This document shows, piece after piece, positions 6,166-34,382 of a stretch of 59,853 nucleotides of DNA (its first letter is position 1; the number at the start of each line of letters is the position of its first letter). Below the pieces are notes generated by a model. That model was not told the origin of the DNA and did no database searches. It saw only the letters and a program-made list of their open reading frames with translations. Source of the DNA: Escherichia phage KS_A8; the sequence record PP627279.1; one strand, 5' to 3'. A program made the position numbers and the translations under genes.

Positions 6166-6819
6166 ATGAAGACATTAATTGAAGCATTGTTAGAACTTGA
6201 TCCGGAAAACCCGAATCATTGGACCAGCGATGGCTTACCTAAAGTAGACGCTCTGCGTTTCGCTACCGCTAACCCGTCTTTAACCCGCGACGATATTACG
6301 ACTGCTGCCCCTCTATTCACCCGCGATAACCGCGTGCTGGAAGAGCCTGAGCCTGTGGAACCCGTTAAATCTGCTGATCCAGTTTTACATGAAGCAGTTA
6401 AACAGGAGAAAGCTCATGAAGAACAAAAGAAAGTCGCGGTTGCAACGATGCAAATCGAAGTTAAGATTAGCGAAGCACTGCGTGCTCTTCTGGAGCCGGA
6501 AAAAATCGGTGACGCTTCCAGCTTAACCGATGAAGAACTGAAAGCGAAGCGCGAAAAGCTTAGCAATGTGGTTAAAGAGATTGCCCACACTAAGCACGCG
6601 TTGGAGCTCGCTATCGCAGACGTTCAAGCGGATCTGGATAAGATTATCGTTGAGCAGGAGCGTCGTCGTCCTAAGTCCGGTCTTACTGCAACTCAGATGT
6701 ATCTTGAAGCGCAGAAAAAACGTAAACCGGAAGACATGCTTTCTGACCATCGCTTCCAGAACCCTATTGACGATCCGGTCGCCCGTATGGTTGCACGTAA
6801 TATGATGCGTCGAGGTTAA
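6166..6819 (+). CDS. hypothetical structural protein
   Basis: 217-aa ORF in the head module, charged and helical; no motif recognised. Confidence 0.3.
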   Translation: MKTLIEALLELDPENPNHWTSDGLPKVDALRFATANPSLTRDDITTAAPLFTRDNRVLEEPEPVEPVKSADPVLHEAVKQEKAHEEQKKVAVATMQIEVKISEALRALLEPEKIGDASSLTDEELKAKREKLSNVVKEIAHTKHALELAIADVQADLDKIIVEQERRRPKSGLTATQMYLEAQKKRKPEDMLSDHRFQNPIDDPVARMVARNMMRRG

Positions 6820-30050: not shown

Positions 30051-30659
30051 TTATTTACAAGCTTCAAGGAACTCCCGGCGCCATTCTTTACCAATATCGC
30101 TACCATGCTCCAGTTCTGTAGCTCCCCGGAACGCTTTGGTAATGGTAGAGCTTCCGCATACCTGCTTAACCCCGCGCGATTCCATGCACATATGCTTAGC
30201 ATCGATGTAAACGCACACAGCTTTCGGGTCTAAATGCTCCTGGATAGCATCTGCAATCTGGTTAGTAAGACGTTCCTGAACTTGCAGTCGACGACTAAAA
30301 GCATCCACAACGCGAGACAGTTTACTGAGCCCCACAATGCGACCGTTAGGAACATACCCCACAACAGCGCGACCGATAATAGGGGCTATATGGTGTTCAC
30401 AATGGCTATAAACTGGAATATCACGGACGATGACCATTTCATTTGAACCTTCCGCCCCGTCTTCAAAGGTTTTAAACAGACCAGCAATATCCACATTATA
30501 ACCGCCAAACCATGTAGCATAGGCTTTAGCGACACGATATGGAGTCTCTTCCAAACCTGGACGTAATTCAGTGCAATTTTCAATTCGAGTTAGTAAAGCT
30601 CGCACCGCGCGAGTAATTTCAAATTGAATACTTTCGTCATTAATAGTAAATTTTGGCAT
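30051..30659 (-). CDS. folE: GTP cyclohydrolase I
   Basis: CEHH active-site motif in ...VYSHCEHHIAPIIGRAVVGYVPNGRIVGLSKLSRVV...; start set at MPKF (RBS AAGGAA); an upstream in-frame ATG at 30692 is also possible. Confidence 0.85.
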   Translation of the reverse strand: MPKFTINDESIQFEITRAVRALLTRIENCTELRPGLEETPYRVAKAYATWFGGYNVDIAGLFKTFEDGAEGSNEMVIVRDIPVYSHCEHHIAPIIGRAVVGYVPNGRIVGLSKLSRVVDAFSRRLQVQERLTNQIADAIQEHLDPKAVCVYIDAKHMCMESRGVKQVCGSSTITKAFRGATELEHGSDIGKEWRREFLEACK

Positions 30660-30694
30660 GGTTTGCAGTTTCCTTGTTGTTAATGTGGTCATAC

Positions 30695-31216
30695 TTACAG
30701 GCTATAGTTTACGTGACATTTTGAAGTTTCTTCGATGGTGCATTCTACAAGTTGAACACCATGTTCGTCAAGCAGTTGCGGCCCAATTACTTCAACCATA
30801 TATGCAGCTAAGTTTTCCGCAGTTGGGTTAAACGGTAAAGATACCAGCGAACCGAAATATGCGTCCGTATGCTCGCAAGGGTCTTGTTCACCCGTTGCAA
30901 TTTCATGATGGATACACTCGCGGACTTTTGTAAATAGCGGGTCATTTTCCCAATGCAGGAATTTATGATCCCAGTTATCTTCCAGCCACTGGCAGAGCGT
31001 AGTTTTAACCACGCTAAAATCAATAACTCGCCCAACGCTGTCCAGACCGTCCTCAATCAGCTTTCCTCGTGTCACTACTTTTCCGCATCCATGTTTCGGC
31101 ACAACCTTAAAGTGAAACTTATAGTTGTGACCGTGGAGGTGGCGACATTTGCTTTCGTGACCTACAACACGATGTCCGGCGCAAATTTCATGTGAACGAA
31201 TTACTGTATAGCTCAT
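30695..31216 (-). CDS. queD: 6-carboxy-5,6,7,8-tetrahydropterin synthase
   Basis: 173 aa; CAGHRVVGHESKCRHLHGHNYKF matches the QueD/PTPS Cys/His zinc-binding signature. Confidence 0.8.
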   Translation of the reverse strand: MSYTVIRSHEICAGHRVVGHESKCRHLHGHNYKFHFKVVPKHGCGKVVTRGKLIEDGLDSVGRVIDFSVVKTTLCQWLEDNWDHKFLHWENDPLFTKVRECIHHEIATGEQDPCEHTDAYFGSLVSLPFNPTAENLAAYMVEVIGPQLLDEHGVQLVECTIEETSKCHVNYSL

Positions 31217-31716
31217 TTTAATGCCTCTTTAGACTGTTCAATTTCTAATGCACGCTGTGCGGATGCAATAATATCTTTCAAGTCTTCTACCAGACTTTTA
31301 TGACCGCGTTCGCCCGGCTGCAACGCCTTTTTAATTAAATGTTGTAAAGCTGGGTTAGTTGTTTTCCAAGCTTCCAAGACATCATACACGTCCACGATGC
31401 ATTTTACAACATTGCCGTTTTGATCTTTACCATAAATAATTTTCTGATATTTATTCATGGGAATTTTAGATGGTTCAATAGATTGTTTGACGTAATCATC
31501 CGCAACGATATATCGCCAGGCTATAATATCTTGAATTTTATAAGGGCTATTCTCATCCATAGCTGAACGCCCTTCTATAGCCCAATCCCATCCATGTAAT
31601 AGATTCTTAACGTGTGTGCCGTTGCGCAAACGAACTTCAAACTTCTCATTACGAAGAAAAATAGGCATTCCTTTACCGTCGTGTAGGTGCCAAATTTTAT
31701 TCAAATTATCTTTCAT
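31213..31716 (-). CDS. hypothetical protein in the deazaguanine cluster
   Basis: Start set at MKDNL just after the yhhQ-like stop; 167 aa; no motif recognised. Confidence 0.3.
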   Translation of the reverse strand: MKDNLNKIWHLHDGKGMPIFLRNEKFEVRLRNGTHVKNLLHGWDWAIEGRSAMDENSPYKIQDIIAWRYIVADDYVKQSIEPSKIPMNKYQKIIYGKDQNGNVVKCIVDVYDVLEAWKTTNPALQHLIKKALQPGERGHKSLVEDLKDIIASAQRALEIEQSKEALK

Positions 31717-31717
31717 T

Positions 31718-32197
31718 TTACGCTCTCGCTGTACGTGAATGAACTTCGTAAACAACCCAAAGGATAGCAGACGCTGTGAACTTACTTAAGCTCATTGCTA
31801 CCATCGATCCCGGATTAACAATACCTATAATACTTAAGAACACAATGGAGTCAATTGGTACAGCTACCAAAGAGCTAATAAATACTCGTTGATGGAAAGG
31901 CTTCTTGGTGACCGTGTATACTACATAGTCCGCGAACTCACTAAGCGCAAAAGACGCAACGGATGCAACTACAACCGCAGGATCACCGAACACCCAGCTA
32001 AGGATGCAACCAACAATCATTGCAGGGATGACGCCTTTGCCAGCGTTACGCTGTGCGTAATCACGCAGAACAAAGATAATACCTACAAAGAAAGCCATCA
32101 TTGGGACTACGCCAAGTGGCGTATTAAGCATCGGAAGGTAAGAAAAGCCCAGGTTTACGAATGTAATTGCAGCCAGATAAGCAACGATAAATTTCAT
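31718..32197 (-). CDS. queuosine-precursor transporter-like membrane protein (YhhQ/COG1738-like, putative)
   Basis: 159 aa, several hydrophobic helices, embedded between queD and queC; family assignment is from context and memory. Confidence 0.4.
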   Translation of the reverse strand: MKFIVAYLAAITFVNLGFSYLPMLNTPLGVVPMMAFFVGIIFVLRDYAQRNAGKGVIPAMIVGCILSWVFGDPAVVVASVASFALSEFADYVVYTVTKKPFHQRVFISSLVAVPIDSIVFLSIIGIVNPGSMVAMSLSKFTASAILWVVYEVHSRTARA

Positions 32198-32317
32198 ACT
32201 TTTGTTCTCCAGTTTTAACAGCGCTATTCGCTGGTTGTTGGGTTTAAAAGCTTTAGTAGTATAGTTGGGTTACCGCACCCTAAACAATGCGCTAGCGGTG
32301 CGGTTTTCGCGGTAAGA

Positions 32318-33025
32318 TCAAGCTTTGCTAATAAATTCGCTGTACCCTTTAGCACGCAGTTTGCACGCAGGACATTCACCGCAACCATATCCCCAGTCAT
32401 GCAGAGTGCGGCGGACGCCGTTATAGCAAGTATGGGACTGTTCAATTACTGTGGTTAAGAAGCCAACCTTATCCGCCAGTTCAAACGTTTCCGCTTTATT
32501 TAAACGCATAAGCGGGGTAACGAAATGAATATCTGTTTCATATCCAACGTTTAACGTAGCTTCAAGCAAGTCTACAAACTGCTGGCGGCAATCTGGATAA
32601 CCGCTATAGTCTGTTTCACAAACACCCGTAACCACATATCGGGCGCCAACTTTCTGCGCGTAGGCGTGCGCGGTAGTCAGGAAAAGTGCATTACGGTTTG
32701 GCACAAAGCTTGCCGGAAGGTTGTTGTGCTGTTCGTGATGTTCGTTAACATCACCTTCGTTCCCGATTAAAGCGCTATTGCCAATCTGTTTCAAAGCAGG
32801 TAATTCAAAGACAACAAATGGGACATCGTGCTCTTTACAAATTTGATCAGCACAAGCCAGCTCAATGTTATGACGTTGACCGTATGCAAAACCAATAGCG
32901 TAGACCTTATCATAGTTATTAAGTGCAAGACCTAAACAGGTCACGCTGTCCTGGCCGCCAGACAGGACCACAACGGCGGAGTTATGATTTTTTACAGGGA
33001 ATACCAGTTTATCTAATTTATTCAT
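32318..33025 (-). CDS. queC: 7-cyano-7-deazaguanine synthase
   Basis: 235 aa; PP-loop VVVLSGGQDS near N-terminus; C-terminal zinc-site cysteines CYNG...CGECPACKLR. Confidence 0.85.
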   Translation of the reverse strand: MNKLDKLVFPVKNHNSAVVVLSGGQDSVTCLGLALNNYDKVYAIGFAYGQRHNIELACADQICKEHDVPFVVFELPALKQIGNSALIGNEGDVNEHHEQHNNLPASFVPNRNALFLTTAHAYAQKVGARYVVTGVCETDYSGYPDCRQQFVDLLEATLNVGYETDIHFVTPLMRLNKAETFELADKVGFLTTVIEQSHTCYNGVRRTLHDWGYGCGECPACKLRAKGYSEFISKA

Positions 33026-33026
33026 C

Positions 33027-33215
33027 TTAGAAACCTTTAAGACTAATATTGAGGTTAATGACTACTTGTTCCACCACCGCTTCAGATGTTACCTGACGCT
33101 GGTGTATTTCAAGCTCCGAATGTATTTTCTTTGATGCAGCGCGGCAAATAGCGTCATTCAACTCGTCCTGTAAACGTTGAATTTTCTGCATAAGAATTAC
33201 AGTTTCTTCATTCAT
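33027..33215 (-). CDS. hypothetical protein
   Basis: 62-aa helical ORF between queE and queC. Confidence 0.25.
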   Translation of the reverse strand: MNEETVILMQKIQRLQDELNDAICRAASKKIHSELEIHQRQVTSEAVVEQVVINLNISLKGF

Positions 33216-33420: not shown

Positions 33421-33675
33421 TTAAACCTCCGTTAATGTTTGAGTCCAGTCTAAGCCTTCAAGGTCTACATCAGCTATTTCATCGTACTCGTAAGCTCCCG
33501 GATCTGCTGGCAGCCATCTATCAAATCGATGACTGAGTTCTGGAGGAATTGCTTCATACCCCCAAACCTTCCCATCCTTGTCGGCTGCCAGATAATCAAC
33601 TCGACTTGGAACGGTTAAAGTGACACCACAAAAATTAACATCTTTAGTATGCACAACCTGACTTAATACACGCAT
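33421..33675 (-). CDS. hypothetical protein (paralog of 54998-55300 product)
   Basis: 84 aa; shares AADKDGKVWGYEA and VDLEGLDWTQTLTE segments with the 54998-55300 protein. Confidence 0.3.
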   Translation of the reverse strand: MRVLSQVVHTKDVNFCGVTLTVPSRVDYLAADKDGKVWGYEAIPPELSHRFDRWLPADPGAYEYDEIADVDLEGLDWTQTLTEV

Positions 33676-34382
33676 TATTCCACCCCGATATATTTGTGAA
33701 CCTGAAGCTGCAACGTGTACCCGTGTTTCATACAGCTTTTGACAACCGCTTGGATGTTACTGTGGTTAAGATCTTCATCCTGCTCGTCCATTGGCTGCAA
33801 ATATATCTTACCTTTGAACCCCTTCGGAGGTCTAGCGATAAATGGCGTAGCTTGATGATCTAATGCTTGAAGCGGTAAACCGTCTTCCACGTTTACACAG
33901 CACGCTTTAAGCACATATTTAAATGCATTTGCACGGTACAGCACAGAAGGATGAATTTTTGAAGTCTTAGGACTGCATACAATTACAGGTAACTGGGAAA
34001 AGTTCTTAGGTAAAGGCATAGACCCGTTAGTTTCAATCTGTACAAGATACCCGCGCGATAACAGTTGTTCAATAAACGGGTTAATTTGCTGACGGAACGG
34101 TTCACCCCCAGTAATGACCACAAGTGAGGTGCTATTGCCTGATTCCAGCTTACGGCTTTCGATTAAACGCATGATATCAACAATGTGGTAAAGAGAACGA
34201 CCAACAGTATAATCCGTGTCGCAGCCCGGGCATTGCAGGTTACATCCAGCAAGGCGCACAAATACCGCAGGTTGACCGCAGAATGGACCTTCACCCTGAA
34301 TGGTAGAGAATACCGAATGCACGTCTAAATACATATCGTTTTCTTTAGAACGAGACTCGGGAGCTTGTTGATTAATATTCAT
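33675..34382 (-). CDS. queE: 7-carboxy-7-deazaguanine synthase (radical SAM)
   Basis: 235 aa; Cys cluster AGCNLQCPGCDTDY near N-terminus as in QueE radical-SAM enzymes. Confidence 0.8.
   Translation of the reverse strand: MNINQQAPESRSKENDMYLDVHSVFSTIQGEGPFCGQPAVFVRLAGCNLQCPGCDTDYTVGRSLYHIVDIMRLIESRKLESGNSTSLVVITGGEPFRQQINPFIEQLLSRGYLVQIETNGSMPLPKNFSQLPVIVCSPKTSKIHPSVLYRANAFKYVLKACCVNVEDGLPLQALDHQATPFIARPPKGFKGKIYLQPMDEQDEDLNHSNIQAVVKSCMKHGYTLQLQVHKYIGVE

Follow-up and report, generated by a model that had tools for sequence, protein, structure and literature searches.

A compact VUT (COG1738) family membrane protein, putatively a preQ0 importer, in the dPreQ0 DNA-modification cluster of Escherichia phage KS_A8

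The window, meaning the whole 59,853-nucleotide stretch of DNA that was analysed (Escherichia phage KS_A8, sequence record PP627279.1), is a complete Seuratvirus (Queuovirinae) genome, collinear with those of the Escherichia phages OddieOddie, SeppeHuegi and CAjan at ~93-95% nucleotide identity. It contains a dPreQ0 DNA-modification cluster in which vut (the phage yhhQ) is accompanied by dpdA, folE, queD, queC and queE, all encoded on the minus strand. The features of the cluster are as follows:

28856..29776, minus strand: dpdA, DNA guanine transglycosylase (phrog_887, E=2e-96)
30051..30692, minus strand: folE, GTP cyclohydrolase I (Pfam GTP_cyclohydroI, E=2e-61; NF006825, above cut-off)
30695..31216, minus strand: queD, 6-carboxytetrahydropterin synthase (Pfam PTPS, E=3e-22; phrog_2389, E=1e-52)
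31213..31716, minus strand: ORF of unknown function (phrog_23361, E=4e-93; no Pfam or NCBIfam family)
31718..32197, minus strand: vut (phage yhhQ), compact membrane protein of the VUT (COG1738) family with six predicted helices, putative preQ0 importer
32198..32317, minus strand: non-coding leader between queC and vut (120 nt), with a ribosome-binding site at 32207-32210 and a hairpin at 32272-32304
32318..33025, minus strand: queC, 7-cyano-7-deazaguanine synthase, which makes preQ0 (Pfam QueC, E=1e-74)
33675..34382, minus strand: queE, 7-carboxy-7-deazaguanine synthase, radical SAM family (phrog_2076, E=2e-68; TIGR04322, E=9e-28)

The dpdA product shares 100% identity with a protein of Escherichia phage SeppeHuegi named '7-deazaguanosine inserting enzyme', and the assignment of queC is further supported by TIGR00364 (E=3e-72, above cut-off). 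The vut ORF runs from ATG to TAA over 159 codons and is preceded by a GGAG Shine-Dalgarno sequence at 32207-32210, 9 nt 5' of the start codon. Its product matches phrog_4899 (E=1e-47), a family labelled 'unknown function' in PHROGs, and full-length relatives with 40-100% identity are found by tblastn in 74 phage records, while a metagenome collection contributes 108 related protein clusters, mostly of 152-167 aa. The ORF called in the initial annotation is thus a real and conserved phage gene. Compared with its CAjan orthologue, vut shows 31 nucleotide differences over 480 bases, and because all 31 are synonymous, the gene is under strong purifying selection. The placement of vut between queD and queC in the initial annotation is accurate on the upstream side, where vut lies directly downstream of queC with only the 120-nt leader intervening, but on the other side the ORF at 31213-31716 separates it from queD. 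The likely start codon of this ORF is the ATG at 31716, one base past the vut stop codon (junction TAAAATG). The C-terminal ~90 residues of its product are common to several other PHROGs, and in one viral locus (L028) a gene with a similar C-terminal end is located upstream of vut instead.

The leader is almost invariant among Seuratviruses. It differs from that of CAjan by one substitution in 120 nt, compared with 6.5% divergence in the vut coding sequence, and in three Seuratviruses from IMG/VR it carries at most a few differences, with queC 3' ends that are wholly different in two of them. Its predicted RNA fold (-28.6 kcal/mol, z=-1.8, RNAfold) is only modestly better than that of shuffled sequence, and the hairpin at 32272-32304 is stable. 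A GC-rich hairpin occurs at the same place, ~20 nt before the start codon, in the distant relatives L025, L027 and L030, with a run of T residues after it in L025 and L030. The leader may be a regulatory RNA or a promoter element. A consensus scan of 31100-33100 for promoters and terminators gave no more sites than in shuffled sequence. A preQ1 riboswitch like that of E. coli yhhQ was considered and rejected. Inspected by eye, the leader shows, ahead of the ribosome-binding site, no more than a 5-bp hairpin closing a 5-nt loop, which is not large enough to form a preQ1-I pseudoknot. A loose preQ1 motif search returned matches at chance level. Rfam gave no match at E<=10 in 32100-32420 and none at gathering score across the whole window, and it missed the positive control as well: at E<=10, cmscan does not detect the visible type III preQ1-I motif in the leader of E. 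coli K-12 yhhQ (L002 ~6177-6211, UUGGGUUCCCUCACCCCAAUGGUUAAUCAAAAAGG). The negative Rfam result on the phage leader is therefore weak, and Rfam negatives for the very small preQ1-I class are not to be trusted.

The initial annotation had described the vut product as YhhQ-like, and profile comparison bears this out. The protein matches Pfam Vut_1 over residues 66-145 (E=2.2e-5; 25.3 bits against a gathering score of 27.2) and the NCBIfam family TIGR00697, 'queuosine precursor transporter' (E=1e-4; 22.2 bits against a cut-off of 50.95), both matches being significant yet under the curated cut-offs. Among 51 relatives, Vut_1 is matched by 50 (best E 1.3e-8) and TIGR00697 by 42 (best E 6.6e-9). 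The family profile aligns by hhalign with a clade of 190-aa metagenomic proteins, named 'queuosine precursor transporter' by their source, at 99.4% probability, and this clade in turn aligns with the E. coli YhhQ clade at 80% in a profile-profile comparison. Direct comparisons with E. coli YhhQ are not significant, either by BLASTP (E=8.7, ~22% identity) or by hhalign against a low-diversity enterobacterial YhhQ alignment (probability 1.7%), and homology is thus established through the Pfam profile, the intermediate clade and a joint alignment. This alignment, of 33 sequences from the three clades including E. coli YhhQ, contains 11 invariant columns (N28, D57, R61, G64, S83, A114, S115, D126, S146, D154 and F158 in YhhQ numbering), nine of which are mapped onto the phage protein: N28, D57, R61, A114 and S115 align with phage N15, D46, R50, A78 and S79, and D126, S146, D154 and F158 with phage D90, S108, D116 and F120, with G64 and S83 outside the mapping. 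Taken together, the vut protein is homologous to the VUT/COG1738 family, with a case that is solid at the family level. When 1.84 billion representative proteins were searched with the profile, only 1,330 matched at E<=0.001. The protein belongs to a distinct, fairly small and divergent VUT sub-clade and is not an equivalog of E. coli YhhQ.

The protein was also described at the outset as polytopic, in agreement with the six hydrophobic segments seen by hydropathy in both the vut protein and E. coli YhhQ, and with the six membrane-spanning helices of its AlphaFold2 model (pLDDT 83.5, pTM 0.72). The model comprises, in order, a helix (2-20), a beta-hairpin (23-32), a short helix, a long helix (38-70) that covers two of the hydrophobic segments, and three further helices (73-97, 101-124 and 129-158). 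The AlphaFold2 model of E. coli YhhQ (pLDDT 80.3) contains the same elements in the same order, namely TM1, beta-hairpin, short helix, TM2-3, TM4, TM5 and TM6. Apart from K139, every lysine and arginine of the vut protein is in one of the two termini or in loops 2-3 and 4-5, and by the positive-inside rule both ends are therefore probably cytoplasmic. This prediction agrees with experiments, cited by Zallot et al. (PMC5372724), in which the C-terminus of YhhQ was placed inside. The best structural matches of the model are S-components of energy-coupling factor (ECF) transporters, e.g. RibU, FolT and ThiT, and BioY is also matched; the vut protein is thus predicted to have the six-helix fold of these S-components. 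A PDB search found no sequence relative of YhhQ and no solved VUT_1 structure. The protein is shorter than bacterial YhhQ, as first noted (159 aa versus 221 aa in E. coli), and the models indicate that its 159 residues make up the whole fold in minimal form. A truncated gene or pseudogene is ruled out by the presence of all six helices together with the purifying selection. A holin-like function was considered separately and rejected, with holin matches in BFVD only at E>1 and low probability.

For the identical protein of CAjan, the gene, annotation and knock-out are all published already, and in this respect there is nothing new for the present genome. CAjan DNA carries dPreQ0, and the corresponding cluster consists of folE, queD, queE, queC, yhhQ and dpdA (PMC7544227), with yhhQ listed by Kot et al. 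2020 as one of the six assignable genes of the 7-deazaguanine cluster (PMC7544227). The transporter annotation is repeated in the paper on phage EC151, which includes a phylogeny of the phage transporter (PMC8310023), and again in the paper on phage iggy. In E. coli, YhhQ is required for preQ0 and preQ1 salvage (Zallot et al. 2017, PMC5372724). The suggestion in the initial annotation that the phage could scavenge precursors in addition to making them thus coincides with what has been proposed in print for two phage proteins, the identical one of CAjan and the homologous transporter of EC151 (PMC7544227, PMC8310023), and it is reinforced by the gene neighbourhoods in viral and bacterial genomes described below. 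A literature search for a transport assay of a phage VUT homolog found none.

The viral neighbourhoods were studied by scanning IMG/VR with the family alignment, keeping the best 80 of 184 loci, and searching their flanks with locally built HMMs for the enzymes of the window and for several DpdAs. Among these best 80 of 184 loci, dpdA is present within 10 kb in 68, always on the same strand. In 50 of the 80 it is directly adjacent to vut, with no folE, queD, queC or queE within 10 kb, while the Queuovirinae arrangement of dpdA with a full que cluster accounts for 16. De-replication of the same best 80 loci at 90% identity leaves 45 clusters, 21 with dpdA adjacent in this way and 10 with the Queuovirinae arrangement. 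A spot check of the ORFs adjacent to vut identified a phrog_887 DpdA in eight of eight cases. For phage records at large, the background rate of dpdA is only 241 in 50,697. Such two-gene cassettes, in both gene orders, are carried by phages and prophages whose backbones are otherwise unrelated and contain no folE, queD, queE or queC. For example, Vibrio phages PS25B.1 and 1.173.O, both represented by complete genomes, contain an abutting dpdA-vut pair in opposite gene order, and tblastn found no preQ0-synthesis genes in either. The records of both phages annotate dpdA only as 'hypothetical protein'. A prophage-like Shewanella contig contains a helicase gene, a TGT gene and vut in a row. Examples of the cassettes (vut-dpdA or dpdA-vut) are:

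35639-36872 of L007 (Vibrio phage PS25B.1)
9054-10318 of L009 (Vibrio phage 1.173.O)
6001-7214 of L011
4598-5967 of L017

Outside the Queuovirinae, the bare vut-dpdA pair is the commonest context of vut. Hutinet et al. 2019 reported YhhQ homologs as uncorrelated with any phage group, and the tight pairing of vut with dpdA in IMG/VR contigs may therefore not have been described before.

A recognisable canonical dpdA was not found in a few vut carriers, e.g. Roseobacter phage CRP-701. In some phages vut adjoins not a canonical dpdA but a gene for a ~200-aa protein of phrog_15826, at the following positions:

3721-4320 of L008 (Roseobacter phage CRP-701)
6468-7091 of L015
4286-4930 of L082
12918-13556 of L028

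The protein is annotated as 'ssDNA-binding protein' in CRP-701. It shares with DpdA a 'FAxDNGxF ... FAxxPDV' motif (BLASTP E=8e-6 and 2e-4), and two DpdAs cross-match phrog_15826 weakly; by these sequence similarities, phrog_15826 may be a divergent mini-DpdA family.

The short VUT proteins are not exclusive to phages, a possibility ruled out by a scan of bacterial species genomes, which found 288 short-VUT stretches. Most of these belong to Desulfovibrionaceae or Rhodospirillales, and some lie on complete Desulfovibrio chromosomes. The chromosomal clade (Desulfovibrionaceae, Rhodospirillales/Alphaproteobacteria) adjoins tgt, queG or queC, one or more of which lies within 1.5 kb of vut in 34 of 80 bacterial loci counted out of the 288 stretches. 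By comparison, dpdA is near vut in only two of these 80 loci, both of them phage-like contigs. Examples include the arrangement queG, vut, queC in a Rhodospirillales genome (L179 8876-11179) and a short VUT gene on a Desulfovibrio desulfuricans chromosome (L124 10001-12182). The short VUT clade is therefore a bacterial short-YhhQ lineage, and phages probably took the gene from bacteria of this kind. Its occurrence in two independent contexts, next to DNA transglycosylases in phages and next to tRNA-queuosine genes in bacteria, ties the clade to 7-deazaguanine metabolism.

The reality of the gene and the selection on it, its homology to the VUT family, the modelled fold and the linkage of vut to dpdA and to queuosine-pathway genes are matters of observation; what the protein carries, in which direction, and how the phage profits from it are our inference. 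On the reading that we consider likely, the vut protein is a stand-alone carrier of the VUT/COG1738 family (YhhQ, QPTR) that imports preQ0 for DpdA. During infection, the protein would insert into the host inner membrane and take up preQ0 (7-cyano-7-deazaguanine) as the free base from the medium. This would add to the preQ0 made by the phage from GTP through FolE, QueD, QueE and QueC, and DpdA would then exchange preQ0 for guanine in the phage DNA, giving protection from restriction. Because E. coli K-12 lacks an ECF module (PMC5372724), the vut protein would act alone, as a secondary carrier. In the present Seuratvirus, vut would serve as an accessory, non-essential salvage route, whereas in phages that contain only vut and dpdA it would replace synthesis. 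The main evidence against preQ0 import by the phage protein is the CAjan yhhQ deletion without a modification phenotype, described below. Further points against it are the host's own YhhQ in E. coli, the family scores under the curated cut-offs, the non-significant direct comparisons with enterobacterial YhhQ, and the few vut carriers in which no recognisable canonical dpdA was found.

The chief rival is that the vut protein is a VUT transporter for another substrate, such as preQ1, queuine, another 7-deazapurine, or an unrelated purine or vitamin, and does not directly feed dPreQ0 formation. According to Zallot et al., individual COG1738 subfamilies may be specific for different bases (preQ0, preQ1 or queuine), and few residues are conserved family-wide (PMC5372724), so that the preQ0 specificity of the vut protein is not guaranteed. 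The distance of the short clade from E. coli YhhQ (~22% identity at E=8.7; hhalign 1.7%) would fit such a divergence, as would the location of its bacterial members next to tgt and queG, where preQ1 or queuine are possible cargoes, and phages with only vut and dpdA could insert any 7-deazaguanine that is available. On the other side, the DNA of CAjan, a phage with the identical protein, carries preQ0 (PMC7544227), vut lies directly downstream of the preQ0 synthase gene queC, and the close pairing of vut with dpdA suggests a cargo that DpdA accepts as substrate. With these observations, we judge a different cargo to be unlikely.

Still less probable is the absence of any role in import, with the protein instead causing membrane perturbation or superinfection exclusion, acting in export, or being encoded by a neutral passenger gene. 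This possibility draws on the 'unknown function' label of phrog_4899, on the YhhQ already present in the host, and on the CRISPR-Cas9 deletion of CAjan yhhQ, which had no detectable effect on DNA modification: in rich medium, the mutant DNA was still restriction-resistant, with a wild-type modification profile (PMC7544227). Kot et al. 2020 explained this result by YhhQ being dispensable for de novo preQ0 formation (PMC7544227). The deletion shows that yhhQ is dispensable with intact biosynthesis, in rich medium and in a YhhQ-positive host, and is not proof of inactivity. A role outside transport is also difficult to reconcile with the purely synonymous divergence from CAjan, with polar residues conserved as far as E. 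coli YhhQ, with a predicted transporter fold that is fully retained, and with the repeated, independent pairing with dpdA in unrelated phage backbones and in both gene orders. As a separate observation, the 'delta-yhhQ' CAjan deletion (NC_028776, 31850-32400) is listed at 31,850 with a genome 550 bp shorter (PMC7544227 Table 1), and by the RefSeq coordinates (gp41 32084-32563, gp40 31513-32082) it would also take part of gp40.

A function as the S subunit of an ATP-driven ECF transporter, docking on a host or phage EcfT/EcfA module, would accord with the structural matches to RibU, FolT and ThiT and with the RegPrecise annotation of the COG1738 member YpdP as an S-component (cited in PMC5372724), but is highly improbable. 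An ECF core module is missing from E. coli K-12, and yhhQ genes are not clustered with those for ECF components (PMC5372724). Neither in the window nor in the other loci inspected does an ATPase or T-component gene adjoin vut, and BioY, itself a structural match, is reported to work alone (PMC5372724).

Returning to preQ0 import by a stand-alone carrier, a more specific and tentative proposal is that phrog_4899 is a dedicated partner of DpdA, forming an 'import-and-insert' vut-dpdA cassette by which phages without preQ0-synthesis genes would hypermodify their DNA entirely from scavenged 7-deazaguanine. In Seuratviruses the transporter would provide a back-up supply independent of the riboswitch-controlled yhhQ of the host. 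If the vut protein is indeed a preQ0 importer, phages can supplement their supply of the base that gives them restriction resistance, or obtain all of it from outside, and their fitness would be tied to the environmental pool of queuosine precursors. The minimal 159-aa fold could also help structural work on a family that has no solved structure. Two results add modestly to the literature consulted: the predicted fold, compact yet complete, and the frequent occurrence of a bare vut-dpdA cassette among viral contigs.

Among named systems, the closest is CAjan gp41 (YP_009196835, 'putative preQ0 transporter'; yhhQ in Kot et al. 2020), which is 100% identical over 159 residues and occupies the same place downstream of queC in a dPreQ0 cluster. 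The two loci differ at one position of the 5' leader and in the genes between vut and queD, which are gp40 and gp39 in CAjan and one different ORF here. Compared with E. coli YhhQ (b3471, 221 aa; COG1738, PF02592, TC 2.A.88), the vut protein is 62 residues shorter, lacking ~12 N-terminal residues, a C-terminal extension of ~25-30 residues, an insert at ~90-105 of YhhQ between TM3 and TM4 (roughly 20 residues) and a short one at 164-174 before TM6. A preQ1 riboswitch is visible upstream of E. coli yhhQ, whereas none is recognised upstream of vut, and E. coli YhhQ serves tRNA modification, whereas vut would serve DNA modification. The ECF-type proteins share the fold predicted for vut at 7-17% identity in structural alignments; BioY and BtuM (solitary S-components), RibU, FolT and ThiT have no detectable sequence similarity to it and have other substrates. 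By contrast, the preQ0 transporter of Enterobacter phage EC151 and other phrog_4899 proteins belong to the same short phage VUT family and occur in Queuovirinae-type clusters, the EC151 transporter differing from vut by sequence divergence only, whereas many other members of phrog_4899 are encoded in the minimal vut-dpdA pair.
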